Shown here in pieces: positions 9,048-52,532 of a DNA stretch of 64,000 nucleotides. A program made the translations under genes and the position numbers. The DNA comes from a virus (taxonomy: Duplodnaviria > Heunggongvirae > Uroviricota > Caudoviricetes): the IMG/VR virus record IMGVR_UViG_3300008107_000202, one strand, 5' to 3'. The number at the start of each line of letters is the position of its first letter. Within the stretch, counting starts at the first letter, position 1. The notes beneath the pieces were generated by a model. That model did no database searches. It saw nothing but the letters and a program-made list of their open reading frames with translations, and was not told the DNA's origin.

Positions 9048-9049
9048 GA

Positions 9050-9319: not shown

Positions 9320-9462
9320 TTGTATCTCCTAGTTGAGTTGAGGAAGCATCAGTTTATAGCAGCATGAATAGAAAAGCAAGCATGAAAGTGTAACAGGATC
9401 ATATACTTAGATGAATCAATGAATAGATAGATGAATACTTAAATTTTGAGTATTCCAGCGTC

Positions 9463-10002: not shown

Positions 10003-10306
10003 ACTGATATTATTCTATACTTTAAATGTTTCGTTGTAGGAAAAGACAAGCCTTCTACAACGGCGTGATACAAAATCACCCTGTAGCGGCTCGGTCTTGG
10101 ATACTCTCGTTGTGAGGGTTCTCTAATCCTGTTATCCATCGAGGTCAGTGACTTGTCGATGTCCTTCTAGTCCAGGATTAACTTGTGCTACTGCTCAAGT
10201 CAAGTGTAACTAGGGATTCTTGGTGAATTGCACACACCCGAGAGCCTTACGGACTTCCCATACCCTTGCTGGCATTGTAACCGATCACAAAGTTGAAGTC
10301 AACCCC

Positions 10307-18349: not shown

Positions 18350-19174
18350 ATGACTATTACAACTAAACCTTATGGTTTCAAGCACTGGAAGTTCCCAGGT
18401 GGTGAAATCGGTGTAAAGCTTGATCCTGAGTGGTTGACGCATCCTCACGATGTTCCACTTGCAGCTACCATTGAACATCGTGGTCTGGTTGATCATGAAG
18501 AGCTTTTCATTATCATGAATCTGTGTGATGCAATCGCTCGTGCTACTGCAAATCGAAAGAATCGTGAACCTGTATATCTGGACATGCCTTACCTTCCTTA
18601 TTCTCGTCAAGACCGAATGTGTCATCCGGGTGAATCTTTTGCACTTGCTGTTTTCTTGCGTGCAATTCCATCCTACGTTCGGTTGATTACAACGGATGTT
18701 CATAGTGACGTTTATGCAAATATCAATAGCTCTGAAAAACCTTACATCCAAAACATTGGTCAAAACACTGTTGCATTTGAAACGGTGAAGAAGCACTTCA
18801 AGGCAGACTGGCTCGTCGGACCCGATGAAGGTTCTACCAGAAAGATCAACGTACTTTCGCGTGAAACCTTTGTACCGTATGTCACGCTGACTAAGACTCG
18901 TAAAGAGGGTAAGGTTCACCATGAAGACTTGACACCTGATACTCTTTCAGGTAAAGTCCTGATTGTGGACGATATTGGAGACGGTATGGCGACTTTTATT
19001 AGTGCAGCACAGATGCTGAAAGCTACACAGCCTCGTATCACTAAACTTGGAGTGATGGTCACACATGGTATCTTTTCAAAAGGATTGGACATTCTAAACG
19101 GTATGTTCGATGTTGTTTACACCTATAATCTGATGAATCCAGATGTTGCAGACCATCCTCTTCTGGCAAAATAG
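18350..19174 (+). CDS. ribose-phosphate pyrophosphokinase (Prs)-like
   Basis: YLPYSRQDR (Prs PYxxYARQDR motif) and PRPP-binding VLIVDDIGDGMAT. Confidence 0.6.
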   Translation: MTITTKPYGFKHWKFPGGEIGVKLDPEWLTHPHDVPLAATIEHRGLVDHEELFIIMNLCDAIARATANRKNREPVYLDMPYLPYSRQDRMCHPGESFALAVFLRAIPSYVRLITTDVHSDVYANINSSEKPYIQNIGQNTVAFETVKKHFKADWLVGPDEGSTRKINVLSRETFVPYVTLTKTRKEGKVHHEDLTPDTLSGKVLIVDDIGDGMATFISAAQMLKATQPRITKLGVMVTHGIFSKGLDILNGMFDVVYTYNLMNPDVADHPLLAK

Positions 19175-19724
19175 CACTGTCCCAGGATATGAAGTTTCTT
19201 CTTGCGGTAAGATTCGTTCTGTAAATAGACTAGTAAGCAAAACAAACGGTAATATTGCTCTTCTAACCGGAAAAGAGCTTAAAACGCAAATAGACAGAAA
19301 TGGTTATGTGCGAGCAAGATTGTCTCATTCTAACAAAAAAATCACGATCAGAATGCATCGTGAAGTAGCTATTGTGTTCATACCTAATCCAGAAAACAAA
19401 CCTCAAGTTAACCATAAAGACGGTAACAAACAAAACAACAGTGTCAGTAATCTTGAGTGGTGTGACAACTCTCAAAATCAAATTCATGCAATAGAATCAG
19501 GACTAAAAACAATTTCGTATGCAGAAAAAGCACCTAGAACCAAATTCAAAGTGCTTGTATTTGATAAGTCTGGAAACCACAAGCTCACATTGTGTGGCAA
19601 TAAAGAAATGAAACTGCATGGGTTCGACTTCAGACTTGTCAATGCTTGTCTGCAAGGTAAACGAAAATATCACAAGGAACATTACTTCAAGTCTCAACCA
19701 CTTGACAACACTCAACCTCAGTGA
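19143..19724 (+). CDS. HNH homing endonuclease (NUMOD4 plus HNH_3)
   Basis: GYEVSSCGKIRS; VNHKDGNKQNNSVSNLEWCDNSQN. Confidence 0.8.
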   Translation: MLQTILFWQNSTVPGYEVSSCGKIRSVNRLVSKTNGNIALLTGKELKTQIDRNGYVRARLSHSNKKITIRMHREVAIVFIPNPENKPQVNHKDGNKQNNSVSNLEWCDNSQNQIHAIESGLKTISYAEKAPRTKFKVLVFDKSGNHKLTLCGNKEMKLHGFDFRLVNACLQGKRKYHKEHYFKSQPLDNTQPQ

Positions 19725-19760
19725 TACAGTTCTGCATCGCAATAACGAAAGGAAAAGTAA

Positions 19761-22320: not shown

Positions 22321-22743
22321 ATGAACATCAAAGACATGATTGATAAACCGTTCATGCTTATCATCCGGGGTCTTCCCGGCTCCGGTAAGAGTACGTTTGC
22401 TGAACTGATTTCACACATGACAGTTGAACCCATTGTCATTGCCGAAGCTGATCAATACTTTGTCGAAAAGTTTGATGGTGTTTTTGAACCTCGACGTATT
22501 GCAGATGCTCATGCTTGGTGTCGTCAGAAAGTCCAACGTGCAATTGATGACAGGAATAATGTTATTGTGTCCAACACTTTCACCCGTGAGTGGGAATACG
22601 ATGAATACTTGACGATGGCATCAAGAGCAAACTACAATATCTTTGTCATTACGATGAACAACATCCACGGTAATAAGTCCACTCACGGTGTTCCTGAAGA
22701 AACTGTCACCAAGATGCGTGATAGGTTCGAACACAGTCTCTGA
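22321..22743 (+). CDS. small P-loop kinase (polynucleotide 5'-kinase-like; alternatively NR-kinase-like)
   Basis: Walker A IIRGLPGSGKSTFA; 140 aa. Confidence 0.5.
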   Translation: MNIKDMIDKPFMLIIRGLPGSGKSTFAELISHMTVEPIVIAEADQYFVEKFDGVFEPRRIADAHAWCRQKVQRAIDDRNNVIVSNTFTREWEYDEYLTMASRANYNIFVITMNNIHGNKSTHGVPEETVTKMRDRFEHSL

Positions 22744-22880
22744 TGAAAAAGTTCATCTTTACACTCCTGATCGGTGTCTTTGGGGCATTGACAGGAGTTC
22801 TTTTCACTGTATCATACCTCGATCCTGGCATTCGATTAATGATCGGTTTCTTCTTAGCTAACCTCGGAGTCTACTACTAA
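22743..22880 (+). CDS. small membrane protein (45 aa)
   Basis: ATGA overlaps on both sides; hydrophobic. Confidence 0.3.
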   Translation: MKKFIFTLLIGVFGALTGVLFTVSYLDPGIRLMIGFFLANLGVYY

Positions 22881-23731
22881 TGAACTACCCGTCCCTCAAG
22901 CAGATGCAGCAACTCGTCGCAGATAAGCTTGCTATTCAGAAGCTTTATGGTGACGATCTGGTAATGTTTAAGTATTCACGCAAGGCTATGTTCGACTACA
23001 TGTGGTTCAAGCGACCTGAACTCATGGAGTGTCGTGGTCATGTGTACCGTCTTTCGACTGGTGAGCGTGTGGTACATGCTCCCCGTAAGTCGTTCAATTA
23101 TCTTGAGAATGATTGGTGGAAAGATGTTCCATTGAACACCGAAGTCCGTATCGACAAAAAGTTTAATGGTTATATGGCATGTGTAACCTTGGTGGATGGT
23201 GACTGGTTGATTACGACTACTGGTAGTTTCGATAGTGAATACGTCAAGCATGCGCAGAATATGCTGACTGGTCATCCTGCTCTTGAAAACGAAGACAACA
23301 TTGATTGCACACTGGTATTTGAAATCTGCGACAGTAAGTTTGATCCACACATTGTTGAGGAACAAGATGGTGCTCACTATCTTGGTTCTCGCATTTCTAA
23401 CGGAAATTGGCTTGCTTATTCGACTTCCAATACTGTGATTGGAATTACCCTCGGTGAAGCAATTCAACTTGCTGAGCGTGATCACGGTGAAGGTTTCATG
23501 GTCTATCAGCTACAGGGTGATCCTCTGTACAATCGTCCATGTAAGCTGAAGAGTCCGTATTACATTGGTAAGAAAATGCTGATGCGTGCTACTCCGTATT
23601 TTAAGATTGATCGACTACCAAAAATGTGGAAAAATGCACCATATTTGATTCAAGATCATTATCTGTGGTCAGATTGGTGTGAACTACCCGAACAAGAACG
23701 TCGTCTATTTTTGGAGAATCACTATGGATAA
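22880..23731 (+). CDS. Rnl2-like RNA ligase (nucleotidyltransferase)
   Basis: Motif I DKKFNGYMA (KxNG), motif IV EGFMVYQ, motif V CKLKS; the N-terminus resembles T4 Rnl2. Confidence 0.5.
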   Translation: MNYPSLKQMQQLVADKLAIQKLYGDDLVMFKYSRKAMFDYMWFKRPELMECRGHVYRLSTGERVVHAPRKSFNYLENDWWKDVPLNTEVRIDKKFNGYMACVTLVDGDWLITTTGSFDSEYVKHAQNMLTGHPALENEDNIDCTLVFEICDSKFDPHIVEEQDGAHYLGSRISNGNWLAYSTSNTVIGITLGEAIQLAERDHGEGFMVYQLQGDPLYNRPCKLKSPYYIGKKMLMRATPYFKIDRLPKMWKNAPYLIQDHYLWSDWCELPEQERRLFLENHYG

Positions 23732-26857: not shown

Positions 26858-27061
26858 ATGACTAAGTTCGTAATCGGTGGTCGCTATAACTGGATTGGTC
26901 AACCTGAGCGGTTGATCTATCTTGGTGATAACTTCAGTGGTAATGGCTTCTGGCATCAATTCGCTAAGGTTGATAAACCTGATGTTGTTTGGTGTGAAGT
27001 CAAGGGTAACCAACTTGATCAATTCGAAGAAACCAAAGACCCTACAGTTGACAAGGTTTAA
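26858..27061 (+). CDS. hypothetical protein
   Basis: ORF only. Confidence 0.3.
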   Translation: MTKFVIGGRYNWIGQPERLIYLGDNFSGNGFWHQFAKVDKPDVVWCEVKGNQLDQFEETKDPTVDKV

Positions 27062-27111
27062 GTTCTAAGCTATAGTTCATTTCTCTGTTCAACAACCTCT
27101 AGGAGATTCAA

Positions 27112-28857: not shown

Positions 28858-29084
28858 TTCATCTTGCACACATTGTCAGCACTCCTTCTCTGAAGGGTTA
28901 TCTTTGGCAGAAGTCCATCGCAGGTTATCACTACGAAATGGAAGTGCTTGACAATCAAGGAACCAAAGTCTACACTGAAGAGCTTCACGACAAGTCTTTC
29001 GAACAAGCCGTGAGTGAAATCCAGAGTGTCATGCAGGTTCTTACCTTCAGCGACGAACTGCGAATCTACGAAGAATTCGCTTGA
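28854..29084 (+). CDS. hypothetical protein
   Basis: ORF only. Confidence 0.3.
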   Translation: MIHLAHIVSTPSLKGYLWQKSIAGYHYEMEVLDNQGTKVYTEELHDKSFEQAVSEIQSVMQVLTFSDELRIYEEFA

Positions 29085-29108
29085 CAAGCTGAGTAGTTCT
29101 GCTAAAGT
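29081..29108 (+). promoter_or_regulatory. A-type promoter TTGACA-N16-TAAAGT
   Basis: Member of a six-copy family (also at 30762, 32189, 33462, 34125, 34684), each followed by a conserved leader and AGGAGA RBS. Confidence 0.55.
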
Positions 29109-29143
29109 ACAACCCATCGTAATTAACCAACAGGAGATACCAA

Positions 29144-29902
29144 ATGCGTTTCAAGACTCTTACCGCTACCATCCTTCGCAACGCTGCAATGCGTGTTCAA
29201 GAAAGTTCACTTCCGATGTGTTGGGCAATTCGTAATGAACTGCGTGAGAACGGTTTCGGTTACAGTGAAGCAATCAGGATTGTCGCAGTAGAATTCGAAA
29301 GCCTGCTTGAAAAAATGAATGTTCCTACCAATGGTTGGTTGTGGCTGAGTGGTAAGACGTGGGAAGAACGCCAAGGTCGTCGTTGGGACACCGATCCTGA
29401 ACTTCGTGAAGCTCGCGTCATGTTCCTGCTAATGTTGGCTGATGCTGTTGCGTATAAGACCGAGCGTGTCAAATCCAATGATGGTTGGATCGATGGTAGC
29501 ATCAAGCCTGAAAAGCCGGGTGTGTATCAGCGTGAATTTGATACTCTGGATCATGTTCAGTTTGGTTACTTCGACGGGGTTTGGCACTACGGCAGTCGAA
29601 CTGTTGAAGATACACTGAGTCGATTTAAGAGTCAGTCGTTTGTAGCAATTAATCAAAACCGTCGCTGGAAGCACATTGAGCAGAAACCTGCGAACCTTGT
29701 TTCGTTCAGTGTCAATCCTGTTGAGCCGGGTGTGTATGCTGTGCAACACAAAAATAAAGTCATTCACTACTCTAAGTGGAATGGTAAGTTCTGGTGCCTG
29801 ACTGATGATATTGAAGGTGCAAAAAGTCAAAAACGAAAGTCGTTTGGTATTTATGACGACAATGCATACACCGGCTGGTACGCAACTCGACTTGACAACT
29901 GA
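29144..29902 (+). CDS. hypothetical protein; paralog of 32860..33465
   Basis: Shared MRFKxLTAT..RNxA.R and FLLMLADA(V/I)AYKT blocks. Confidence 0.45.
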   Translation: MRFKTLTATILRNAAMRVQESSLPMCWAIRNELRENGFGYSEAIRIVAVEFESLLEKMNVPTNGWLWLSGKTWEERQGRRWDTDPELREARVMFLLMLADAVAYKTERVKSNDGWIDGSIKPEKPGVYQREFDTLDHVQFGYFDGVWHYGSRTVEDTLSRFKSQSFVAINQNRRWKHIEQKPANLVSFSVNPVEPGVYAVQHKNKVIHYSKWNGKFWCLTDDIEGAKSQKRKSFGIYDDNAYTGWYATRLDN

Positions 29903-30251
29903 ACCAAAGGAAGCTAACATGCTGCACGTTCTAACAAATGTTCTGGCAATCATTGCAGCGGGTGTTCCTCTGATGATTGTGGATGCGCTACGTTCGATTC
30001 AATTCTTCAAGGCACGAAAGGTAAAGTAATGTACACTCTGTATTTCTTTCATGATGAAACGACTCAAGACTCCATGAGTTACGAGTTCGATAACCGCAAT
30101 GAAGCTCTTGAGGTTGCTATTGCTACCGTCAGGACTGAAGAAATCTTCCCGATTGCAGAGATTCGTGATGAAGATGGAGTGCTTGTCAACCGCATCACTC
30201 CTGCTGTATAATCTCTGATTTCCACACACAAACTACGAAAGGAAACCTACC

Positions 30252-30521
30252 ATGTCTACTCGTCTGCAAACTATCCGTAATCTTATCGCGTCCAGCCAAG
30301 GTCGATTCTTCACTGCTACCTTCGTGAAGAAGAACGGTGAAGTCCGAGTGATGAACGCTCGAATCGGTGTCAAGTCGCACTCTGCTGGTGGCACGCCTTC
30401 GACTGCTGCTCATGAGCAATACATGACTGTGTTCGATGCGAAGATCAATGCATATCGCACACTCAACCTTGAGACGATTTCGAAGCTCAAGATCAACGGT
30501 GTCACGTTCGAGGTACAATGA
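30252..30521 (+). CDS. hypothetical protein
   Basis: ORF only. Confidence 0.3.
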   Translation: MSTRLQTIRNLIASSQGRFFTATFVKKNGEVRVMNARIGVKSHSAGGTPSTAAHEQYMTVFDAKINAYRTLNLETISKLKINGVTFEVQ

Positions 30522-30724
30522 TGAAGTATCGATTGCAGGTTATTACTCCGCTTGGTACCTTCTACAGCAAGTGGTTTGAAAACCAAGCTGCCGTTCGAGT
30601 GTCTGAAATTGAATTCGAAAAGCTTGGTAATCTAAAGATGCCTGCTGAAGATGGCAGTATCATTCGAATCCCGGAAGGTACTTACCTAAATAGTATCGTC
30701 ATCGTCGAAAAGTCCGAACAGTGA
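30518..30724 (+). CDS. hypothetical protein
   Basis: ORF only. Confidence 0.3.
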   Translation: MMKYRLQVITPLGTFYSKWFENQAAVRVSEIEFEKLGNLKMPAEDGSIIRIPEGTYLNSIVIVEKSEQ

Positions 30725-30730
30725 AGAAGA

Positions 30731-30756
30731 CCCTGCCAAGTGCAGGGTTTTTTCTT
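30731..30756 (+). terminator. Rho-independent terminator CCCTGC-CAAGT-GCAGGG + TTTTTTC
   Basis: Immediately followed by promoter TTGACA-N16-TAAAGT (30762-30789). Confidence 0.6.
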
Positions 30757-30820
30757 TTTACTTGACACTTTCTGTGATTCTGTTAAAGTAACACCCATCG
30801 CAACACACAGGAGATATCCA

Positions 30821-31189
30821 GTGATCAACCAAATCCTCGGTCGTGCTACTCTCGGTCAACCTGATCCGGTGGTTGGTATGGGTGCAACTCTGCTGTACAT
30901 GACTGACCGCTACCCTGCGACGATATTCCGTGTGTTCACCTATCGTAAGTGCATGGCTGTGGAAGTGCGCGAGGATGAATACTCACACATTGGTGAAGGT
31001 TACCTGGGTGACTTCAAGACCTGCGTGCGAGCTACCCCTAAGTATTTCGTCTTCAAGAAAGGTGTGTGGGTCCGTCTGCAAGTCGAAGATAATGATGTAG
31101 AGTTTGCTAAGAAGAAGTTCAGCACTACTACTGAGCGTGGTGGTCTGCGGATTGGTCAACGTGACGGTTATCAAGACCCTCATTTCTGA
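30821..31189 (+). CDS. hypothetical protein (GTG start after AGGAGA)
   Basis: Leader conserved with the other A-type cassettes. Confidence 0.4.
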   Translation: MINQILGRATLGQPDPVVGMGATLLYMTDRYPATIFRVFTYRKCMAVEVREDEYSHIGEGYLGDFKTCVRATPKYFVFKKGVWVRLQVEDNDVEFAKKKFSTTTERGGLRIGQRDGYQDPHF

Positions 31190-31322
31190 AAGGAAATCAA
31201 GTGAACATTACCTGCTCTGACATGAAACAGTTCATCGAAGTGATTGCTGGTCTTGTCCGCGAAGGCTTGACGTTTAATGCAGATGCTGATAGACTCGTGA
31301 TCAATCTTACAGGAGGTCACTG

Positions 31323-31748
31323 ATGAAAGTCTTCGTCTACTTCAACCTGCATCGCAAGTGCTTCAGCGTCAAGGCTCTCGAAGGCGCACTCAAGGGTCGT
31401 GTAATCATCCATGCCTCCTACGTTAATCTTTACAATTGTGCTTTCAAAGTATCAGAAGCCGGTCGTCAACGTGTCCTGCGTGAGAAGCGTAAAAATGTCC
31501 ACGCGGGTGTTGTAGGCAATCTTCAGTCGTTTACGTTCGTTGATCAACAAAACAACATGGCAGAGTTTCGCAAAGATTGCACTTATGCTCTCGCTTTTGA
31601 AAAACCCCACAACCGAGTCAAGTATAATCCGTACAAACTTGACAAGTTCTACCGAGAGGAAGACAATGCATGCATTCCGGTTGAAAAGCACCAGCTTGTT
31701 TCCCTGGCAAAGCTCGAAGGTCAACCTCCTGTAATCTATTTGCACTAA
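31323..31748 (+). CDS. hypothetical protein
   Basis: ORF only. Confidence 0.4.
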   Translation: MKVFVYFNLHRKCFSVKALEGALKGRVIIHASYVNLYNCAFKVSEAGRQRVLREKRKNVHAGVVGNLQSFTFVDQQNNMAEFRKDCTYALAFEKPHNRVKYNPYKLDKFYREEDNACIPVEKHQLVSLAKLEGQPPVIYLH

Positions 31749-31757
31749 GGAATCAAT

Positions 31758-32180
31758 ATGCCGTTCATCGAAAATGTCAGTCTAGACGATGCCCGTAAAG
31801 CTTGGCATTTCGACCCTGGCCCGAACTCTCTGCTGATCCGAATCATTGATCCTGACATGGAGTTTGGTCAGGTCAAGTTGCCGTTCAAGGAAACTGCCAA
31901 GTTCAAGTTCCTCGATTCTGAGGACGGTGACGGTATCCCTGAGCACTTTAAGATCAATGAAAGTGAAGCTGATCATATTGTCGAACGGTTGATCCATGCT
32001 CGTAACAACCACATGAACGTCATCGTGCATTGTGTCGCGGGTGTCTGCCGCAGTGGTGCTGTGGTAGAATTCGCTGTTGCAGCCCTTGGTTTCCAAGACA
32101 CTGAAAAGTTCAGGCAACCGAACCTTCGGGTCAAGCGGATGCTGTTCGAAGCGTATGAAAGAATTGCTAGCGGAAATTAA
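31758..32180 (+). CDS. dual-specificity/tyrosine protein phosphatase (CX5R)
   Basis: VIVHCVAGVCRSGA P-loop. Confidence 0.75.
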   Translation: MPFIENVSLDDARKAWHFDPGPNSLLIRIIDPDMEFGQVKLPFKETAKFKFLDSEDGDGIPEHFKINESEADHIVERLIHARNNHMNVIVHCVAGVCRSGAVVEFAVAALGFQDTEKFRQPNLRVKRMLFEAYERIASGN

Positions 32181-32223
32181 CCATTCGCTTGACTCAACTA
32201 TTACCTTCTGCTAAAGTCCTGAC

Positions 32224-32367
32224 ATGACAACTCAACGCCAACGCAAAATGAAGATCAAGATCAAGCAGCAGAAGCCTCGTAATCCGACTGTAGAAGTCGT
32301 GATGCGTAAACCTGTGCAAAAGCACCGCAATCGCAAGCGTGATGCTAAGATGCAACCTGTGGAGTAA
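32224..32367 (+). CDS. small highly basic protein (47 aa) behind an A-type promoter
   Basis: ATG 9 nt after TAAAGT; preferred over the antisense ORF 32232..32414. Confidence 0.3.
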   Translation: MTTQRQRKMKIKIKQQKPRNPTVEVVMRKPVQKHRNRKRDAKMQPVE

Positions 32368-32369
32368 CC

Positions 32370-32816
32370 ATGAACTTTCTGCAAAACCGTGATCTGTACA
32401 TTGACCATACTCATCCTGATTACAAGTATCTAAAGAGCACTTTCAAGTTGCCGACATTTGGTCAATGGGAAACCGATACTTCAGTTAAAGAGGTATCAGA
32501 TACTGAATTGTGGCAACAGTTGACAATGTTCAGTTTCGCAGCCAGCACTGTTGTTTGCAGTGAAAACGTGGACAATGGAGTGTGGTGTAAGATCAAGGCA
32601 TTTTACGTCGCTGATGATCAATCGTGGATCATTGTTGCGTACCCATACTCTACCTTCGGTTCCAGCAAAGATTCAAAGTGGAAGCTTGACAAACCCCGCT
32701 ACTTCAAGTACCAAAAATGCAACCATGAATTTACCAGTCGTTCTGTCGGTCGTTGCATCACTGAATACACCTGCAAGCTGTGTGGTTTTGTGAATGTAGT
32801 TGACAGCAGCGACTGA
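32370..32816 (+). CDS. hypothetical protein with C-terminal Cys cluster (Zn ribbon)
   Basis: CNHEF..CITEYTCKLCGF. Confidence 0.4.
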   Translation: MNFLQNRDLYIDHTHPDYKYLKSTFKLPTFGQWETDTSVKEVSDTELWQQLTMFSFAASTVVCSENVDNGVWCKIKAFYVADDQSWIIVAYPYSTFGSSKDSKWKLDKPRYFKYQKCNHEFTSRSVGRCITEYTCKLCGFVNVVDSSD

Positions 32817-32859
32817 AGTCTGTACAGTTCACATCATCGTAATCAACAGGAGATATCAA

Positions 32860-33465
32860 ATGCGTTTCAAGTTCCTCACTGCTACCCTTGTGCGTAATAC
32901 TGCACTGCGTATGCGTAGTATCAAAATGAATACCGAAGGTGACGAATTCATGTGCAACGCATTGGTTCGTGAAGCTACGTCACAAGGCTTTGAAAATGGC
33001 TCACGTCAAATGAATGGTGTAAAACGGGAATTTCACAATGTTCTAAAAGAAATGCAAGTTAGCACTGCCGGTAGTCTTTCTCATCCTGAACGAACGGATC
33101 GTGAAGCACGTACGTATGAGTGGAGAAGTGAAGCTCGTATTCTGTTCCTCTTGATGTTGGCAGATGCTATCGCATACAAGACGAACGGTGGTAAGAAAGT
33201 CAAGCCGGTTCCGCCTCCTATCATTCTCCCTGATCCGGGCATGGTCTTCATCAAAGAAATTGGTGTTGATCGGTATACTGCAAAGAATGCATACGGTACG
33301 TTCGTGATGCAACGTGGTAACCCCAATGCTCGTGAACTGAAAGCAAAAACCGACCGTTGGTGTCTGATTGATCCAAATGGACAAGTGATCGTGGACGATG
33401 AAGTTTTCCGCAACCAGATTGCGTTCGATTACCATCTTGTACTTCAACGACAATACTGGGCTTGA
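32860..33465 (+). CDS. hypothetical protein; paralog of 29144..29902
   Basis: Shared sequence blocks. Confidence 0.45.
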   Translation: MRFKFLTATLVRNTALRMRSIKMNTEGDEFMCNALVREATSQGFENGSRQMNGVKREFHNVLKEMQVSTAGSLSHPERTDREARTYEWRSEARILFLLMLADAIAYKTNGGKKVKPVPPPIILPDPGMVFIKEIGVDRYTAKNAYGTFVMQRGNPNARELKAKTDRWCLIDPNGQVIVDDEVFRNQIAFDYHLVLQRQYWA

Positions 33466-33524
33466 CTCAACAATAGCTTTCAGTTAAAGTACAACCCGTC
33501 CAAACAACCCGTAGGAGAAACCTG

Positions 33525-33839
33525 ATGATCAAGAGTACCGTTAGCCGTGCGAAGCGGCGTGCATTTGTCAAGTTCTACAAACAGCGCCTGAAAAATATTG
33601 GTTGGCATTACATCTGTTGGGCTGCTGACTCGTACACGAACGACTTCGAAGTTCGCCATGATGTCATGAAATCTGTCGAACATACTCTCAGTCGTTCGAA
33701 CTGCAATACAATCCCGAGTGTCTTCGATACCCACGGTGAAAAAGAACGTCAACAAGTTCGCAACAAGTGGCTGCGAATCTATGCTGAACAAGGTGTAGCG
33801 TATCACTGGCAAGACACTGATCAACCTTACACCAAGTAA
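33525..33839 (+). CDS. hypothetical protein; paralog of 34184..34675
   Basis: KSTxSRxxRRxxVK and (W/F)LR(I/L)YAEQG(V/I)AY blocks shared. Confidence 0.4.
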   Translation: MIKSTVSRAKRRAFVKFYKQRLKNIGWHYICWAADSYTNDFEVRHDVMKSVEHTLSRSNCNTIPSVFDTHGEKERQQVRNKWLRIYAEQGVAYHWQDTDQPYTK

Positions 33840-33870
33840 TCACAACCCCTCAACTCATAAAGGAAATCAA

Positions 33871-34116
33871 ATGCAAATCGTTAACACTGTCAAGTCTTTA
33901 TTCGCTCCTACCACTCCGAAGGTCACGGTTGCTACCGTCCTGGCACAATTCAGTCAGACTGTCGCTCAACTTGAGCAGGTTCGTGCTGAGAGTGAAGCTG
34001 CTGCGGATGCCGCTGCTGCTACCATCGCTGAACTGGAAGTTCAACGTGCTGATTCGCTGAAGGAAGCCGGTCGTGCTGCCTCGGTTGCTGCGAAGATTTC
34101 TGCTCTGCTGGATTAA
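33871..34116 (+). CDS. Ala-rich small protein
   Basis: ORF only. Confidence 0.3.
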   Translation: MQIVNTVKSLFAPTTPKVTVATVLAQFSQTVAQLEQVRAESEAAADAAAATIAELEVQRADSLKEAGRAASVAAKISALLD

Positions 34117-34183
34117 CCTTGCGCTTGACTCAGGTATCTGAGTCTGTTAAAGTACATCCATCGCAACACACACAGGAGATTTC

Positions 34184-34675
34184 ATGTACAAGAGTACCCT
34201 CAGTCGTCAAGCCCGTCGCAACGCAGTTAAGGCAATCAAGTCTGCTGCGTTGAAGGATGGTAATCCGAATTTCGACGGTGGAATCTGCCAGTACATCAGT
34301 TCTGTGGCTGTACCGGAACAAAAGCATCGATTAGACATTCGTGGTGCAATCAATACAACGCTAGGTAGGGAAGCATTTCTTCCTGATGCTGTGATTCCTC
34401 ACCCTGTTTGTTATCAACCAAAGCTTCGTACCGCAATGCGAATGAAGTTTCTTCGACTCTACGCTGAACAAGGTATTGCATATACTCCGTTCGAATGGTT
34501 GAACAAGGTTGACTCTCGCTTTGCGAAGTGGAAATCTGAAGTCAACAAGATTGCTGCAAAACACAACCTTGTGCCCGCTGTCAATCCTTCTGTCTCTGAG
34601 CAAGAGACGTGGACGAAGCATTACATGAACAATTTGACTCCGAAGCAAGCTTGGGATGCAACTCCCTGGCGATAA
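34184..34675 (+). CDS. hypothetical protein; paralog of 33525..33839
   Basis: Shared sequence blocks. Confidence 0.4.
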   Translation: MYKSTLSRQARRNAVKAIKSAALKDGNPNFDGGICQYISSVAVPEQKHRLDIRGAINTTLGREAFLPDAVIPHPVCYQPKLRTAMRMKFLRLYAEQGIAYTPFEWLNKVDSRFAKWKSEVNKIAAKHNLVPAVNPSVSEQETWTKHYMNNLTPKQAWDATPWR

Positions 34676-34748
34676 CCACACGCTTGACTCGGGTACTCTT
34701 TCAAGCTAAACTCTAGTCTTCTGTTAAACAACCTCTAGGAGAAAACAC

Positions 34749-34976
34749 ATGGAAATCATCGGTAACGCAATCATCGGCACCGCCCGCGAATTCGAAGAGA
34801 ACAAGGTGGAACTCAATGGTGTGGCACTCACGCAAGTCACAATCAATGCCCTCGGTGCCCACAAGGTCATCGAATACTTCGGTGAAGGCCCCAAGCCTGC
34901 CCGTGGCAAGACCCCGAAGGTATACAAGGCTGAGAGCAAGGAAGGTATGGTGTTCAAGCTTCCTGAGTCGGAATGA
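34749..34976 (+). CDS. hypothetical protein
   Basis: ORF only. Confidence 0.3.
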   Translation: MEIIGNAIIGTAREFEENKVELNGVALTQVTINALGAHKVIEYFGEGPKPARGKTPKVYKAESKEGMVFKLPESE

Positions 34977-35111
34977 GCTACAACAGCAGTCAGTACGCTG
35001 CCCAATTGATTTATGATCGGGCTATTCGTGAAGCATGCGGCAAAGTTCCTGCGAGTGAACCGAGTCAATGTCACCAGCCGGTGACTAAAGTAAAGCAAAA
35101 GGAAAAAACCA

Positions 35112-35309
35112 ATGAAGGAACTGCTCGTAATCCTAATGGCAATCACGCTGGTTAGTGCCTTCGTGTTTGCGGGGTATGTTTTCGGTGCTGTCATCGGTAC
35201 ACTGCTGATTTTGTTCTGCGCTGTGGTCTTCAGTGGCTTCCTGATCTTCCTTGCAATCGAAAGCTTGTGGGGTGTACTGAAGTCTCTGTTCAAGCAAAAG
35301 ACCAAGTAA
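35112..35309 (+). CDS. small two-TM membrane protein (holin-like size)
   Basis: Hydrophobic 65-aa ORF. Confidence 0.3.
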   Translation: MKELLVILMAITLVSAFVFAGYVFGAVIGTLLILFCAVVFSGFLIFLAIESLWGVLKSLFKQKTK

Positions 35310-35321
35310 TTCTGTCAGGAT

Positions 35322-35351
35322 TTGACAGCATAGTCTGAATCGCTGTATACT
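35322..35351 (+). promoter_or_regulatory. B-type promoter cassette (TTGACA/TTGCAG-N18-TGTATACT plus conserved leader TCTATCGCAAC..AGGAGA)
   Basis: Four near-identical ~90-nt copies, at 35307-35385, 35888-35935, 36790-36866 and 37358-37436. Confidence 0.55.
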
Positions 35352-35382
35352 GCGTCTATCGCAACAGACAGGAGATAGACAG

Positions 35383-35889
35383 ATGGGATTCCTCTTCGAA
35401 ACTAAGTCGTGCAGCCGTTGTGGTGGTTCTGGTCGCTATAGCTTCAACCTGATGAACGGTGATCGATGCTTCGGTTGCGGCGGCACTGGTCTGCAGCACA
35501 CCAAGCGTGGTTCTGCTGCCCGTGCGTTCTTCCACAAAAGTCTGGAAAAGCCGCTGAGTGAAGTCAAGGTTGGTGATTACATCCTCTTCGACACTTCCAT
35601 GTTCGGTGGCCCTGAACGTTGGTGCAAGGTGGAAGCAATTGAAGCCGGTCAGTCTCCCTACATCATCAATGGTGTACGTGACGAGTCGATTCGCTACAGT
35701 CTGAAGCTGAGCCGCAAGGGCAAGGAAGTCTGCGGATGGAGTGGTCTTGCGTTGGATCACATGTTGAAGTCCGTCAAAAATGATGAAGAATTGAATGCTC
35801 GCAAGGCTGCTGCTATTGCCTACCAGGGCACGTTGAGTGAAAAGACTGGTAAGCCTGTGAAACAAAAAGTCCAGGCGATTTCCGAGTAA
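35383..35889 (+). CDS. Zn-ribbon protein
   Basis: CSRCGGSGRY..CFGCGGTG. Confidence 0.4.
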   Translation: MGFLFETKSCSRCGGSGRYSFNLMNGDRCFGCGGTGLQHTKRGSAARAFFHKSLEKPLSEVKVGDYILFDTSMFGGPERWCKVEAIEAGQSPYIINGVRDESIRYSLKLSRKGKEVCGWSGLALDHMLKSVKNDEELNARKAAAIAYQGTLSEKTGKPVKQKVQAISE

Positions 35890-35937
35890 TTTTGTCGGGA
35901 TTTGCAGAAGTCTTCAGAACTAGTGTATACTGCGTTT

Positions 35938-36139
35938 GTTGAGTCGTTCTTCTAGTGGCCCAGGAAATGTTCCCGTCTTGTGGACAGAACGCAGGTTCGA
36001 ATCCTGCACGACTCGACACCTTAACTTAGTTCCTAGTTTAACGGCCAAAAACGAAGCCTCTATCCCGTTCGATTCGGGTAATCTGCATGATGGTCGCAGG
36101 GGTTGTATCCAAGGTTCGATTCCTTGGGGAACTAAGTTA
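35938..36139 (+). ncRNA. Structured tRNA-like RNA driven by B-type promoter copy 2: element 1 (35938-36011) with acceptor GAGTCGT/ACGACTC and T-arm GCAGG-TTCGAAT-CCTGC; element 2 (36018-36139) closed by a perfect 15-bp stem and containing two T-arm mimics
   Basis: Stems and T-loops read directly. No plausible ORF, so the overlapping table ORFs were rejected. Confidence 0.35.
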
Positions 36140-36161
36140 AGGTAATCAACAGGAGAACACA

Positions 36162-36782
36162 TTGGAAAAAATCGTTGACATTCTCGGGCAAGAAATCAAA
36201 GTTGGTGATGTAGTTGTTGCCACAAACCAAAGCACGATCTACAATCAAGTTCACGTTGTGACTCGTCTTGGTTCTGCTGACAAAATTCAAGTCAACGGGT
36301 CAAGCTATGCTAAGGCTGTGTACCTGATGGTCATCAATGAACAATACAAGATTGCCAAGGGTGAAGAAAAATTCGACGCTCTGCGCATGCAACATGAAGA
36401 GTACATGAACGAAGAACGTGTGGTCAAAAAGCCGCATACCCCTCGCTTCCTTGTTCTGCGATATGCTGATTACCCTCGCAATGTGAACGGTAAATACACC
36501 GTTGATCAGTGTCCGGTCTTTTACGTGATAGGTACCTGCGCAACAATTCAGGATACAGTCAAGAAAATCAACGATATTACCAAGGATTGCAGTAAGGGTG
36601 AATACTTCGAACGTAAGAATCTGAAACCCAAGAACATGCAGTTTAGTTATTCGGACTTCAGCAAGGACTTCAGTCGAAAGGCTCTCGTTGAGATTGACAT
36701 GGACCTTGAATTGTGGGTTGATCAACGTGTGAGTGAAGACTCTGAAACATACAAAAAGCTTCTGACGCTGCAAAACCGATAA
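36162..36782 (+). CDS. hypothetical protein
   Basis: ORF only. Confidence 0.4.
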   Translation: MEKIVDILGQEIKVGDVVVATNQSTIYNQVHVVTRLGSADKIQVNGSSYAKAVYLMVINEQYKIAKGEEKFDALRMQHEEYMNEERVVKKPHTPRFLVLRYADYPRNVNGKYTVDQCPVFYVIGTCATIQDTVKKINDITKDCSKGEYFERKNLKPKNMQFSYSDFSKDFSRKALVEIDMDLELWVDQRVSEDSETYKKLLTLQNR

Positions 36783-36862
36783 CCCTACATTTTTGTCGGG
36801 ATTTGCAGAAGTCTCAGGAACTGGTGTACAATGCGTTTATCGCATCGCAAACAGGAGATTGA

Positions 36863-37357
36863 TTGATGGCTCGCACTCGTACTGTTGTTCGCCCCCTCTG
36901 TGCTGGTGAAGAGGCAATGCAAGGTCGTGAAAGCATGCAAGAAACGAAGGATTGCATCGTTCGTGCAATCACGAATGCTGCCTGCGGTGAGTACACCTAC
37001 GAAGAAGTTCACGCTGTTTGCCGCCAGCATGGTCGTGTGAACAACCAAGGTATGACTGCTGACATGTATTTCCCTCTGCTTGTCAAGCTTGGTTTCGAAC
37101 TGAAGTTCGTTTGTGGCACCACCAATGCTGCAATGTATGCAGATCGTGTTGCCAAGGAAATGCAACTGCAGTATCGTCGCGTCAAGGGTGTTACTCTTGA
37201 GCGTGCTCGCTGTGGTCTTGGTAAGGGTTCATTCTTCGTTGCTATCATCGGACATGCTACGTGTGTCGTGAACGGTAACATCTACGATAGGGGCGCGATG
37301 AAGGGTGGTTGCAGTGTCACTCATGTGTGGAAGTTCAAAGGTAAGCCGCAAACTTGA
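36863..37357 (+). CDS. hypothetical protein
   Basis: ORF only. Confidence 0.4.
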   Translation: MMARTRTVVRPLCAGEEAMQGRESMQETKDCIVRAITNAACGEYTYEEVHAVCRQHGRVNNQGMTADMYFPLLVKLGFELKFVCGTTNAAMYADRVAKEMQLQYRRVKGVTLERARCGLGKGSFFVAIIGHATCVVNGNIYDRGAMKGGCSVTHVWKFKGKPQT

Positions 37358-37434
37358 GTAATTCTGTCGGGATTTGCAGAAGTCTCAGGAACTGGTGTAT
37401 ACTGCGTCTATCGCAACGCACATAGGAGAAAACA

Positions 37435-37860
37435 ATGGCTTGGTTCAGCAAAGAAAACATGCAGTCGAAGCGCCCCCTGGTCAATGCTGTACTCAAGAAG
37501 TACGACATGAAAGGCACGCTCAGCGGTACGAACACTTCAGGTGTCACGCTCACGATTACCGAAGGTCCGCTGAATTTCATGGAAAATTGCGCGCATAAGA
37601 TGGAAAACGACGCGCATGGTCGTCCTGCGAACGCTGTGACGCCTGATGAAATTCGTGCTCGCAAGTACATGGATGTGAACCGGTACTGGTACCATGAGCA
37701 TTTCGACGGTCAGTGTCTGGAATTCCTCAAGAAAATCATGCAAGTGCTCGACGATGGTAACCACGACAACAGTGATCCAATGACGGATTACTTTGATGTG
37801 GGTTGGTATGTGTACGTCAAGATTGGCAAGTGGGAGAAACCCTATGTTCTTCGAAAGTAA
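37435..37860 (+). CDS. hypothetical protein
   Basis: ORF only. Confidence 0.4.
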   Translation: MAWFSKENMQSKRPLVNAVLKKYDMKGTLSGTNTSGVTLTITEGPLNFMENCAHKMENDAHGRPANAVTPDEIRARKYMDVNRYWYHEHFDGQCLEFLKKIMQVLDDGNHDNSDPMTDYFDVGWYVYVKIGKWEKPYVLRK

Positions 37861-38461: not shown

Positions 38462-39480
38462 TCAAAAACCCATAGGGCTAAAGTTGACTAAAAAACCCTT
38501 GGGGGGTGCTTGACAAAATGCATCCCTGGTGGTGGTTAACCTGGGCCAGATTCGGCGGCCAGCGTTCCGCATGGTGAGAAGCCGTTTCATGATGCGAAAA
38601 GCACGCCGAAGCCCGGGATTCCACAATGTAGAACGTAACACCACGATATGAAACGCTGACTAGCATAAAATCAATCCCTTGTCAAACGTAGGGTCTTTTC
38701 ATATGGTGAAATCCATATAGCACGGAATGTAAACCCCTGTCAAGCGCAGGGGCTTTTCGCATTGTGAAACGTCCAGGCGGCAGCGTGACTAAGCAGTCAC
38801 AGACAAAACCGAAGAGTCACAAAGTATACTGGCACGGATTCTGCTAGTAGCAAACCGCATGCCAGCTTTTGCATACCCCCTACGGGTACCCCTATATACC
38901 CCCGTGGGGTACCCCCTCAATTTACCTAGGGCAGCGCATACCCTACCCCCTATTTTTTACAGATACCCTAGAGGGGGTCGATCTTTTTTTGCCAAGGGTA
39001 GGACAAGGGAAAGCAGGAAAACGGCGCCAAAGCCCGATTAGACCCATCCGTGGGCATTCTCACGATATGAAACGGTCTGACAATCGACTATCTACAGGTT
39101 ATCCACAGAATGCAGGCATGAGACTTGCTAAAGAATCTGCATTAACCCTGCAATTGCGTAGGGTATTGTTTACATGCTAGAATTCTATACGGTCAGAGCA
39201 AATGTCGTATTTATACAACAAACGCGCAGGCTCCACGTCCACCCCAGTCGCTTTCGAATAGAACGATTGTACTACAGAATCCAGGCGCACAAGCAATACC
39301 CGACAAAAACACAGGGACAAATAAAACGCTTGACAGTCCAGGCGGAAACGTAGTAATCGCATGCGCCAGCGTCTAGATGAACAGCACCAGGGAACCTAGG
39401 GTTTACACCTATTCCCTTACAGTTGACAAGGTTATTGTTCGGGTTCACAATAGACCCATCGAATCAAGAAACGGATACAG
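38462..39480. repeat. ~1-kb non-coding region rich in short direct repeats (CACGATATGAAACG x2, GTCCAGGCGG x2, TACCCCC x4) and hairpins (CCCCTG-N7-CAGGGG + CTTTTC)
   Basis: No ORF with an RBS. Repeats read directly. Confidence 0.5.
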
Positions 39481-39872: not shown

Positions 39873-40037
39873 ATGTTCAATAAGCCGGACCCTCTCGCAC
39901 TCCGTGACGTAATCGACCGGGAGAACACCCGCAAACGCGACGAAGCAGGGCAGCGCCGCAAGGCACAATCCGCATTCCGCAAGGCCCGCAAGGCGCACAG
40001 CCGCAACAGCGTTTGCGCTTTCGTCAACGCCGACTGA
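39873..40037 (+). CDS. small basic protein (54 aa); preferred over the antisense ORF 39848..40048
   Basis: ATG with upstream AGGACAA. Confidence 0.3.
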   Translation: MFNKPDPLALRDVIDRENTRKRDEAGQRRKAQSAFRKARKAHSRNSVCAFVNAD

Positions 40038-40062
40038 TCAACCAGCACAAGGAGTTAGAACC

Positions 40063-40317
40063 ATGTTTCAACGTTTCACCAGTACCCGTCTGATTTCCAC
40101 CGATGCCGAGTGCCAGGGCATGCGCCCGGGTCAGTGGGTGACCCTCACGAGCGGCGCCCGGGGTCAGTATCTGGGAACGACCCGCGCGGGTGTTACCGTC
40201 ATTCGTTGGCAGTCCGGCCGCTTCGCCAGCACCAGCAGCGGCGGAACGACCCCGCAGGATGACGCCCGCAACAATCGCCCGCTTCGTCAGTACGCCAAGC
40301 GATACGGGGCCAAGTGA
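40063..40317 (+). CDS. hypothetical protein (GC-rich island)
   Basis: ORF with GC-rich codon usage. Confidence 0.4.
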   Translation: MFQRFTSTRLISTDAECQGMRPGQWVTLTSGARGQYLGTTRAGVTVIRWQSGRFASTSSGGTTPQDDARNNRPLRQYAKRYGAK

Positions 40318-40464
40318 TGCGAGCAGCCCTTAACGTGGTTTGCATTCTCGCGGCCTATACGTGGGCCATCCTGACCGGTAACACCTGACCGGGTGAACCC
40401 GTCAAGCCTCCGCCATCATGGGGGCTTAGGGGTGCATCCTCGCACTACAACCGGAGCCGCTAGC

Positions 40465-40773
40465 ATGGCTGCAATTTCAACCCGCTACATACCCCCGACG
40501 AACACCAAACCCGCCCGCGTCAAAGCATGGCGAACGGGGCACAAGGAAGGCCCATCGGTGACCGTGGACTTTCACGGTGATGCAACTCTCCCGGGTGAAC
40601 CCGTGCAATGCCCGCATGCCCGCGCAGCATGGCGCCTCGTGCTGAAGCTTGACCCGTGGTTTCATGGTCGGCCGTGGTTTCTCGCAGCTTCCACCGACGA
40701 CCAGCGCGGGTATCTGTTCGCAGTCAACGCAGCAGGCAGCGCCACGGAATTCATTGTTCCCCCTCAAGCCTGA
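40465..40773 (+). CDS. hypothetical protein (GC-rich island)
   Basis: ORF with an internal ATG start. Confidence 0.4.
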   Translation: MAAISTRYIPPTNTKPARVKAWRTGHKEGPSVTVDFHGDATLPGEPVQCPHARAAWRLVLKLDPWFHGRPWFLAASTDDQRGYLFAVNAAGSATEFIVPPQA

Positions 40774-40788
40774 AGGAAACCCGACACC

Positions 40789-41583
40789 ATGCACAAGAAT
40801 CTGACCCCCGGTCAACTTCCCGCGAAACCTTACCGCTTCGTTAGGGTCAGTAGCAACCGCAAAACAGGGCCGATCCCGGTAACGTCAACCGCTGCACAGT
40901 CCTGTCCCATGGCATGCCCGATGCGAACCGATGCGGTCGGCGGATGCTATGCCGCCAGCGGGAACAGCGCGATCCATTGGCGGGCACTGTCCGAAGGCCG
41001 GGCCGCTACTGCCCTGGACTTGCAAGGGTTGACCGATGCAATCCGGGCTTTGCCCCGGGGTCAACTGTGGCGGATGAACGAGGCAGGCGACCTGCCCACC
41101 ACGGACGGCCGCAGCATCGATGCCGATTCACTGCGGGCCATCGTTGACGCCAACCGGGGCCGGCGCGGGTTCACCTACACGCACCATGACCCGATGGCCA
41201 GTAGCGGCCCGGGTTCACTCACCAATGCAGCATTCATCGATGCCGCGAACGTGCAAGGGTTCACCGTGAACCTATCCGCGAACAATCCAGCCCATGCCGA
41301 TGCCCTCGCATCCCTCGGGATTGGTGCGCCCGTGGTGACACTCATGGAGCCGGGTGCATGGAAGGGCAAGCACTTCGCCAGCACTCCCGCAGGCAGGCAC
41401 ATCGTGCAGTGTCCCGCAGAGTATGCCGAGGGCATGACTTGCGCACAGTGTGAACTCTGCGCCAATCGTGAACGCCGCTCGATTGTCGGGTTTACGGCAC
41501 ACGGCAGCAGTAAGCGCCGGGTTATCGGGATTGTGAATGCTGGCAGTGTGAAGCGCCAGGATGCACGCCAGGGGGTTGTTTGA
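40789..41583 (+). CDS. hypothetical Cys-rich protein (CPMACPM..GGC ; CPAEY..CAQCELC), GC-rich island
   Basis: ORF only. Confidence 0.45.
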   Translation: MHKNLTPGQLPAKPYRFVRVSSNRKTGPIPVTSTAAQSCPMACPMRTDAVGGCYAASGNSAIHWRALSEGRAATALDLQGLTDAIRALPRGQLWRMNEAGDLPTTDGRSIDADSLRAIVDANRGRRGFTYTHHDPMASSGPGSLTNAAFIDAANVQGFTVNLSANNPAHADALASLGIGAPVVTLMEPGAWKGKHFASTPAGRHIVQCPAEYAEGMTCAQCELCANRERRSIVGFTAHGSSKRRVIGIVNAGSVKRQDARQGVV

Positions 41584-41735
41584 TGTTTGACACCAAACAT
41601 GCCGCCGCCGTCACGCTGCTAGTAATCGGGGCCGCCCTACTCTGGATCATCCCCACAATCGCCGCTTGGTTCATCCGACGCTATCCACCCGGTAACCCGC
41701 AGCAACCGCCGCCAACTGACCCGCCCGCATCGTAG
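41583..41735 (+). CDS. small membrane protein (50 aa), ATGA-coupled
   Basis: One TM segment plus Pro-rich tail; followed by hairpin GCCCCAGG..CCCGGGGC. Confidence 0.35.
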   Translation: MFDTKHAAAVTLLVIGAALLWIIPTIAAWFIRRYPPGNPQQPPPTDPPAS

Positions 41736-42287
41736 CGAGCAGCATAAGCCCCAGGTATCACGCCCGGGGCTTAGTCGTTTGAATTGTCGTCGGATAATGC
41801 CTAGGGTGACAATTGCCGCTTCGCCTGGACTATAGCCCGAGCCTATCACCGCCTGGATACCGATAGAGTGTAACTATCGCGCGCCCTCGCTATCGCTCGG
41901 GTGTCGCTTCGCTCCTATCGTGTCAGTGGATGCTGTCGCTTTGCTGTCGGATGATGCTGTCGGTGTCACCACCCGGTGACTATCTAGATGGACGATGGGT
42001 TTTCTGTCCGTGGATATTTGCGAATTGCTGGAGGGTATGGTGGAGGGTGGTAGGCTGCGCATCAAGCACATTCTCCAAACTGCTGGTTAATCGACCCAAC
42101 GGTCGGGTAATACACCAGTGTTACTATGATATTTTCTGTGCGGTTTATCCGTTTATAGATACATGTACTTATTTCTATAGGATATTTTGGTAAGCAAAGT
42201 CACTCAGGTACTACCCCGTCTCTTCAAACGCTAGGAATAATTTATAAGAATTACTATCAGCTATCCTAGCAGAGTCATCAGACAAAG

Positions 42288-52519: not shown

Positions 52520-52532
52520 TTGGAGAAAACAA

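Follow-up and report, generated by a model that had tools for sequence, protein, structure and literature searches.

Sigma-70-like promoter cassettes with a common translation leader mark gene junctions and probable exchange points in the small-gene block of an uncultivated freshwater phage

Analysis of a 64-kb stretch (64,000 nucleotides; hereafter the window) of the tailed phage record IMGVR_UViG_3300008107_000202 (Caudoviricetes) revealed two families, A and B, of repeated cassettes, in which a pair of promoter-like hexamers is usually followed by a leader ending in an AGGAGA ribosome-binding site. The cassettes are all on the plus strand, lie at gene junctions in the same orientation as the genes behind them, and are set in a block of small genes mostly of unknown function. 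They are present in numbers well above chance, are conserved in two diverged relatives, and contain breakpoints at which the relatives differ from the window. We consider it probable, from their sequence, that these cassettes are early promoters of the host sigma-70 type joined to a standard translation leader, and that they have also worked as recombination linkers.

The pattern TTGAC-N15-19-TAAAGT occurred six times in the 64 kb, always on the plus strand, against 0.31 occurrences expected, and none of 100 shuffles reached six. The original prediction had placed six such copies between 29081 and 37436 (hereafter the span). Five exact copies (29081, 30762, 32189, 33462 and 34125) were indeed found there, whereas the sixth, at 18929, is probably a chance occurrence: it lies in frame inside the ribose-phosphate pyrophosphokinase (Prs) gene, in the segment encoding the conserved GKVLIVDD. 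Two variant copies within the span, at 32800 (-10 TACAGT) and 34684 (-10 TAAACT), bring its total to seven, named A1 to A7. Their consensus is (TAACC)nnnCGC-TTGAC(A/T)-N16/17-TA(A/C)A(G/C)T, with TGn preceding the -10 in A1, A2, A3 and A6; the copies keep the -35, TG, -10, +1 region and ribosome-binding site, while the spacers have diverged.

Family B has the form TTCTGTCNGGAT-TTG(ACA/CAG)-N18-TATACT/TACAAT, with copies at 35310, 35890, 36791 and 37362 (B1 to B4), and the consensus (AGTAA)TTCTGTC(A/G)GGAT-TTG(ACA/CAG)-N18-TA(T/C)A(C/A)T-GCGT(C/T)T. Its core occurred three times against 0.00 expected, so the repeats of both families, as had been claimed, are real. The number of four copies also stood, but not their description as near-identical over about 90 nt: the common sequence extends over about 50-70 nt, B2 to B4 are mutually 81-90% identical over 58 nt, and B1 is only 64-74% identical to them. 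B2 departs from the other copies right past the -10, because it enters a tRNA gene there. Scans for the exact pattern of the B core gave no match in viral_contigs or metagenome_contigs.

In both families, the motif ATCG(C/T)A (ATCGCAAC) starts 5-7 nt past the -10 and is followed by a CA-rich stretch and AGGAGA, which stands 5-8 nt before the start codon. Since this motif lies at the expected initiation point in both, A and B would share their first transcript bases; the ATCG start resembles that of the T7 A1 transcript, ATCGAGAGG. The longer form ATCG(C/T)AA, proposed as the leader of family A, was present in four of the seven copies in the span (A1, A2, A4 and A6), but A5 and A7 carry a different CA-rich leader and A3 has none. 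ATCGYA-N4-16-AGGAG occurred eight times against 0.58 expected, seven of them behind these promoters. Comparison of the plus-strand gene starts between 10000 and 38500 revealed an AGGAGA ribosome-binding site in 10 of 11 promoter-proximal genes, compared with 3 of 28 internal ones (Fisher p = 4.5e-6); 25 of the 28 internal genes have AAGGAA or AAAGG, mostly AAGGAA. Because the +1 region and the ribosome-binding site are common to both, the two families are not independent of each other.

The cassettes show the properties expected of sigma-70-type promoters in their -35, in their -10 and its spacing, in their co-oriented position and in their number. The -35 is TTGACA or TTGACT in all A copies and in B1, and TTGCAG, with four of six matches to TTGACA, in B2 to B4. 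The -10 conforms to TAnnnT (TAAAGT, TACAGT, TAAACT, TATACT or TACAAT) at a distance of 16 or 17 nt from the -35 in A and 18 nt in B. Between 26 and 42 kb, 33 sigma-70-like sites were counted against 15.2 expected, nearly all on the plus strand. The host's housekeeping RNA polymerase, of the sigma-70 type, would thus drive the block of early accessory genes from these promoters. To judge from the spacing, transcription would start at the A of ATCGCAAC, 5-7 nt past the -10, and the leader of about 25 nt, CA-rich and with a full AGGAGA, would cause the first gene of each unit to be strongly transcribed and translated. The families differ in spacer length and in the type of -10, and family B has in addition a GCG discriminator, rich in G+C, and upstream of the -35 the conserved element TTCTGTCNGGA; A and B are probably variants that differ in strength or timing.

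Inspection of the downstream genes did not bear out the proposal that each copy precedes one small gene, as the units contain one to five genes. A1 heads five (29144-30724), which end at the only strong intrinsic terminator of the span, A2 heads four (30821-32180), and B4 at least two; counts for A3, A5 and A7 are given in Table 1. B2 heads two RNA genes, one tRNA-like and the other a second structured RNA, and then a single protein gene (36162). The genes behind the cassettes are mostly ORFans; one is CX5R phosphatase-like and one L5-gp82-like. In A4 the -35 sits within the 3' end of the preceding gene. While the proposed combination of promoter and leader was supported by canonical hexamers, 16-18 nt spacing, single orientation, enrichment and conservation in relatives, the series is not confined to the span: it extends to promoters at 19702 and 27048. 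The former precedes the 507-amino-acid NAMPT gene (start 19761), and its -35 and -10 lie in the 3' end of an HNH gene (19143-19724; NUMOD4 plus HNH_3), which is located between the Prs and NAMPT genes and overlaps the Prs 3' end.

Relatives were found by protein search with the L5-gp82-like gene (31323-31748), whose product was identical on many contigs and 72-83% identical in the relatives. Three contigs, L170 (13.3 kb), L171 and L173 (9.5 kb), are syntenic with the window between 28 and 42 kb, L170 and L173 having 73-78% amino acid identity in this marker protein. Both promoter families and the ATCGCAAC leader are kept in L170 and L173. Identity between the window and L170 was 90.4% in orthologous cassettes and 86.8% in the coding DNA beside them, and the A1 cassette was 100% identical. 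Gene content differed: homologs of six L170 genes and of seven L173 genes are absent from the window, L170 in turn lacks five genes of the window, and the lineage-specific genes are flanked by cassettes.

Alignment of the junctions between the window and L170 or L173 placed the breakpoints within the cassettes or at their edges. The L170 promoter at 5984 combines the upstream flank of A5 with the core of A6, the break lying at the A5/A6 -35, and has a different gene behind it. Homology with the relatives restarts at the 5' edge of A7 and ends at the B1 ribosome-binding site, restarts inside the B2 -10 and ends in the leader region of gene 36162, at the start codon, and restarts at the B3 +1 and ends at the B4 ribosome-binding site, past which L170 has an extra gene and a further promoter with the same leader. 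Promoters were also found exchanged in front of the same gene. In the window and L173 the tRNA-like gene is preceded by a B promoter, in L170 by one of A type; the cassette before the 75-amino-acid gene at 34749 is of A7 type in the window and L170 but of A6 type in L173; and before the MAWFSK gene (37435) each of the three phages carries a different promoter, joined every time to the ATCGCAAC leader. Within the span, seven of eight breakpoints fell in cassette-bearing junctions, which number 11 of 23 (p = 0.027). As far as these alignments can tell, the comparison shows that the cassettes are points of gene exchange between related phages, which is its clearest result and one that the original prediction had missed. 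Because 50-70 nt of common sequence lie at gene junctions, the cassettes probably also act as linkers for homologous recombination, through which genes between two cassettes would be gained, lost or replaced as units and promoters swapped before the same gene.

Table 1 Cassettes, RNA genes and other features of the window
Feature	Position	Strand	Promoter elements	Leader and AGGAG	Start codon or further detail
A-like promoter and leader, outside the span	19702-19760	+	TTGACA-17-TACAGT	ATCGCAAT 5 nt past -10	
Related promoter, outside the span	27048-27111	+	TTGACA-17-TATAGT	A7-type leader CAACAACCTCTAGGAGA	before 55-amino-acid open reading frame
A1	29081-29143	+	TTGACA-16-(TGc)TAAAGT	ATCGTAAT 29116; AGGAG 29132	ATG 29144
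Intrinsic terminator	30725-30757	+			12-bp stem plus T run; just upstream of A2
A2	30762-30820	+	TTGACA-16-(TGt)TAAAGT	ATCGCAAC 30797; AGGAG 30809	GTG 30821
A3	32189-32223	+	TTGACT-17-(TGc)TAAAGT	no leader	heads 2 genes
A4	32800-32859	+	TTGACA-17-TACAGT	ATCGTAAT 32836; AGGAG 32848	ATG 32860
A5	33462-33524	+	TTGACT-17-TAAAGT	ACAACCCGTCCAAACAACCCGTAGGAGAA	ATG 33525; heads 2 genes
A6	34125-34183	+	TTGACT-17-(TGt)TAAAGT	ATCGCAAC 34160	ATG 34184
A7	34684-34748	+	TTGACT-17-TAAACT	...AAACAACCTCTAGGAGAAAAC	ATG 34749; heads 3 small genes
B1	35308-35382	+	TAATTCTGTCAGGAT-TTGACA-18-TATACT-GCGTCT	ATCGCAAC; AGGAG 35370	ATG 35383
B2	35888-35940	+	TAATTTTGTCGGGAT-TTGCAG-18-TATACT-GCGTTTGTT		leads directly into tRNA gene
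tRNA-like gene	35941-36015	+	driven by B2 (predicted)		Lys(CUU)-like; Rfam tRNA 38.9 bits
Second structured RNA (RNA2), 124 nt	36019-36142	+	B2 unit		directly 3' of tRNA-like gene
B3	36789-36865	+	TTTTTGTCGGGAT-TTGCAG-18-TACAAT-GCGTTT	ATCGCATCGCAAAC; AGGAG 36853	ATG 36866
B4	37358-37434	+	GTAATTCTGTCGGGAT-TTGCAG-18-TATACT-GCGTCT	ATCGCAAC; AGGAG 37424	ATG 37435
13 tRNA genes (block)	40-6959	-			
HNH-type endonuclease gene	665-1165	-			
dCMP deaminase gene	8105-8530				
HNH-type endonuclease gene	9463-9957	-			
Primase/helicase, DNA polymerase, two RNA ligases, Prs, NAMPT, ThyX and HD phosphohydrolase genes	~10.3-41.6 kb	+			
HNH-type endonuclease gene	19143-19724				
Terminase, portal and major head protein genes	from 46.5 kb				

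Several observations weigh against this interpretation. The TAAAGT -10 differs from the classic TATAAT, and family B has a suboptimal 18-nt spacer and, in three copies, the weak -35 TTGCAG. The hexamers were judged by the general sigma-70 consensus, from which that of the host may differ. The extra conservation in B (upstream element, spacer and discriminator) exceeds what contact with RNA polymerase alone needs. Folding of the translation-initiation regions revealed that those of cassettes were not less structured than those of internal genes (mean -2.6 versus -3.1 kcal/mol, p = 0.58). As for exchange, the comparison rests on two relatives, L170 and L173, and gene-replacement breakpoints are expected at gene junctions anyway, the p value being only 0.027.

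The extra conservation could mean that the blocks outside the hexamers are operators for a phage repressor or activator, and that A and B are two separately switched temporal classes, an alternative that we regard as possible but on the whole unlikely. The candidate operators are the B upstream TTCTGTCNGGA(T/A)TTG element with its dyad and the dyad of A6 type. Dyads at the -35 were found as CTGTCA-N5-TGACAG in B1 (6 bp, overlapping the -35), as CTGTCAA-N3-TTGACAG in L170 and L173, and as GACTCAG-N4-CTGAGTC in A6 (7 bp, spanning the -35 and the spacer) and in four L173 copies. All three phages retain the GCG discriminator of B together with its upstream element and parts of its spacer, and the B cassettes are grouped at the distal end of the block. 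However, most members of the families concerned have no such dyad or have it in degenerate form, a scan of nearby genes gave no clear DNA-binding regulator but only an HU-like protein and a weak WYL_2 match, and near-identity within a genome can reflect recent copying.

A broader scenario appears improbable to us: gene-cassette exchange beyond T4-like phages in which the AUCGCAAC...AGGAGA leader would be both the crossover site and the handle of a post-transcriptional switch (RegB-like cleavage or GGAG repression), A and B would be separately timed, and B would also express a tRNA-Lys-like RNA with a 9-nt loop and a novel tRNA-like RNA. The narrower proposal that this leader is a RegB-like post-transcriptional target, by which the promoter-proximal early genes would be shut off together, has in our view a slight chance of being right. 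T4 RegB cleaves GGAG in early ribosome-binding sites, and the leader persists behind differing promoters (L170 8893 and L173 4591); moreover, GGAG-type sites are nearly limited to promoter-proximal genes, by the counts given above. That pattern, however, is also predicted by a copied cassette that contains the ribosome-binding site. No RegB- or RegA-like or other candidate protein was identified, and A3, A5 and A7 do not have the ATCGCAAC element.

The repeats could alternatively be remnants of tandem duplication of gene-plus-promoter units, with no role in exchange and no selection on the leader. Two paralog pairs have their own cassettes, namely the genes behind A1 and A4 (29144 and 32860; 37% amino acid identity) and those behind A5 and A6 (33525 and 34184; 34%); 29144 and 32860 share 79% identity along 71 nt of leader and first codons, and B2 to B4 are near-identical through the spacer, as recent copies would be. 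Yet most cassette-headed genes are mutually unrelated, the relatives show the same cassette before unrelated genes and orthologous genes with different cassettes, and the A copies have kept functional blocks while their spacers diverged, which leaves duplication with little likelihood. Recognition by a phage-encoded RNA polymerase or sigma factor instead of the host holoenzyme is highly improbable: long conserved promoter blocks are typical of phage-specific polymerases and the 64 kb inspected belong to a phage with contigs of up to about 85 kb, but hexamers and spacing are canonical for sigma-70 (TTGACA/T, 16-18 nt, TAnnnT, often TGn), and no polymerase or sigma gene was found among about 60 proteins scanned.

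As elements the cassettes are of a kind already known, a clear but ordinary instance of a design found before in T4-like and SPO1 phages. The closest counterpart is an element of T4-type phages, the promoter-early stem-loop (PeSL), described as a mobile regulatory cassette (Arbiol et al. 2010, PMC2839356; Comeau et al. 2014, PMC4122927). Copies of this sigma-70-like promoter recur in hyperplastic regions rich in ORFans, and crossovers fall within them, at times between the -10 and the ribosome-binding site; PeSLs are defined by a stable stem-loop, often GGGG...CCCC, that serves as terminator or attenuator, and by an A+T-rich tract upstream of the -35 (PMC2839356, PMC4122927), and they form circular excision products, or mini-circles (PMC2839356). 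The window shares with PeSLs the placing of repeated sigma-70-like promoters at gene junctions where small ORFans abound, and the presence of cassettes on both sides of single open reading frames. In both systems, too, the insertions, deletions and replacements by which close relatives differ break within cassettes, and some do so between the -10 and either the ribosome-binding site or the ATG. In contrast to PeSLs, folding of each cassette of the window gave no common hairpin, short dyads of 6-7 bp being present only in A6 and B1; a true terminator occurs only once, before A2, and the relatives have more dyad-bearing copies. In place of the A+T-rich tract, A has (TAACC)nnnCGC and B has TTCTGTCGGGAT upstream; furthermore, there are two promoter families with one leader, and the phage is not T4-like. 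We class the cassettes as working like PeSLs but not as members of that family, because they have neither the stem-loop or terminator nor the A+T-rich tract, and because the phage is not T4-like.

T4 early promoters have conserved positions beyond the core hexamers, including TGn, and capture the host polymerase right after infection (PMC2988021). The cassettes resemble them in being many near-consensus host promoters with conserved positions outside the -35 and -10, and differ in having TAAAGT or TATACT in place of the TATAAT -10, in the lack of an UP-like A+T tract, and in a conserved block that continues into the transcript and the ribosome-binding site. A reading of ATTTGCAGAA in family B as a T4 MotA box was rejected, as the element is 18 nt away from the -10 while MotA boxes have their centre near -30, and as plain TTGACA takes this place in B1 and its orthologs. 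SPO1's host-takeover module, as summarized in PMC6873191 (citing Stewart et al. 1998), consists of small early genes in short operons with strong host-type promoters and strong ribosome-binding sites, the same layout as here. The host group and the sequences differ, and a recombination-linker aspect is absent from the SPO1 description in that summary; the likeness is one of gene layout. The SAS/ESAS elements of Cluster K mycobacteriophages are 13-bp GGGATAGGAGCCC sequences located 3-7 bp before start codons, with role unknown (PMC3203893). Like the cassettes, they place an asymmetric AGGAG motif in one orientation just before the starts of unrelated non-structural genes across related phages. 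They have no attached promoter, whereas the unit here comprises promoter, +1 region and ribosome-binding site, of unrelated sequence. Comparison with GGGATAGGAGCCC gave only the AGGAG core in common, the cassette motif being (C/T)AGGAGA(T/A) in a different context.

Distant homologs of gene 37435 and of the DNA polymerase gave 159 surrounding loci, at which neither the A or B motifs nor the leader rose above background, so the cassettes are lineage-specific. L088 is a contig of an unrelated phage, and the homolog of gene 37435 is all that it shares. At 4295-10007 it has a cassette of its own in at least seven copies (TTGACAATAAATC...TATAAT with a conserved leader and AAGGA), one of them directly before that homolog, another sign that the promoter-leader design is common. 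These findings leave the current view of phage gene regulation unchanged. They provide a predicted map, at the sequence level, of early transcription units in an uncultivated freshwater phage that is nearly unchanged in many metagenomes, and indicate that accessory genes are exchanged at promoter cassettes outside T4-like phages as well, without a stem-loop component. The cassettes point to the small genes of unknown function that are probably the first to be made in infection, and are predicted to be ready-made parts, each a strong promoter with a ribosome-binding site, for the phage's host.

Three less ordinary items accompany the cassettes: a tRNA-Lys(CUU)-like gene, a covarying RNA of 124 nt, and a 47-amino-acid open reading frame predicted to be leaderless. 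In the tRNA-like gene, an anticodon stem of 5 bp carries a loop of 9 nt, CCGUCUUGU, which is kept in all three phages (orthologs at L170 7527-7599 and L173 6114-6188); ARAGORN called the L170 ortholog as tRNA-Lys(ctt) but not the window copy. The same phage encodes RNA ligases at 12121-13182 and 22880-23731 (T4 Rnl1 type) and an AAA_33 kinase at 22321-22743, and it is possible that these and the tRNA-like gene form a tRNA-repair set or a countermeasure against an anticodon nuclease.

The second RNA of the B2 unit, RNA2, is followed by the leader AATCAACAGGAGAACACA of gene 36162. It is closed by a terminal stem of 15 bp and contains, besides a D-like hairpin, a pair of UUCGAUU T-loop hairpins. 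Its fold has a z-score of -4.3, with six covarying base pairs among the three phages (orthologs at L170 7603-7726 and L173 6192-6315). It matched no Rfam family, and a covariance model of it found no further homologs in 84 related loci. A Y-RNA (YrlA) reading, prompted by the gene for a 463-amino-acid DUF2828/DUF7788 protein (4659-6050; labelled 'RNA-binding protein' in PHROGs) that splits the cluster of 13 tRNA genes, was rejected, as there was no Rfam match and the topology was wrong: the YrlA fold ends in a Ro-binding stem, not in an acceptor-like stem. In L173, a long inverted repeat (TGTTAGCTTTGCAGCCAGA...TCTGGCTGCAAAGCTAA; 6330-6460), absent from the window, lies between the tRNA-like RNA and an extra 85-amino-acid gene.

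The very basic product (MTTQRQRKMKIKIK...) of the 47-amino-acid open reading frame (32224-32367) is conserved at 100% and 83% in two relatives. Since its ATG lies 6 nt past the -10 of A3 and the frame is conserved, the A3 mRNA is predicted to be leaderless for this product, and probably is. L173 keeps the frame without a promoter, overlapping the upstream phosphatase-like gene.

The wider gene content of the window is that of a lytic-type tailed phage, with primase/helicase, DNA polymerase, terminase, portal and major head protein genes (Table 1). A search of the span for near-identical DNA among 50,697 phage records gave a sole match of 90 nt, to mycobacteriophages and inside one gene; the phage therefore has no annotated close relative at the DNA level. 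Its DNA polymerase is closest to those of uncultured freshwater phages, Limnohabitans phage DC31 and Curvibacter phage P26059A, being 55-60% identical to these last two and to that of an uncultured Caudoviricetes contig (Manatee Spring). Assemblies from JGI, ENA, NCBI and Logan together gave ten contigs of the same phage, at least 99.97% identical.

Outside the span, the G+C content rises to 57-62% at 40001-42000, which carries a DUF7227 gene (40789-41583), and at 52001-56000, which carries a 1171-amino-acid open reading frame without a family match, compared with about 45% for the genome. The cassette block is followed by a repeat-rich non-coding stretch of 527 nt (38462-38988), containing twin terminator-like hairpins near 38677-38770 and ATACCCCC...GGGGTACCCC repeats at 38873-38915, which may be an origin or packaging region. 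A little downstream, the segment 39436-39665 is replaced in two metagenome copies of the phage (L160 and L161) that are elsewhere identical to the window.

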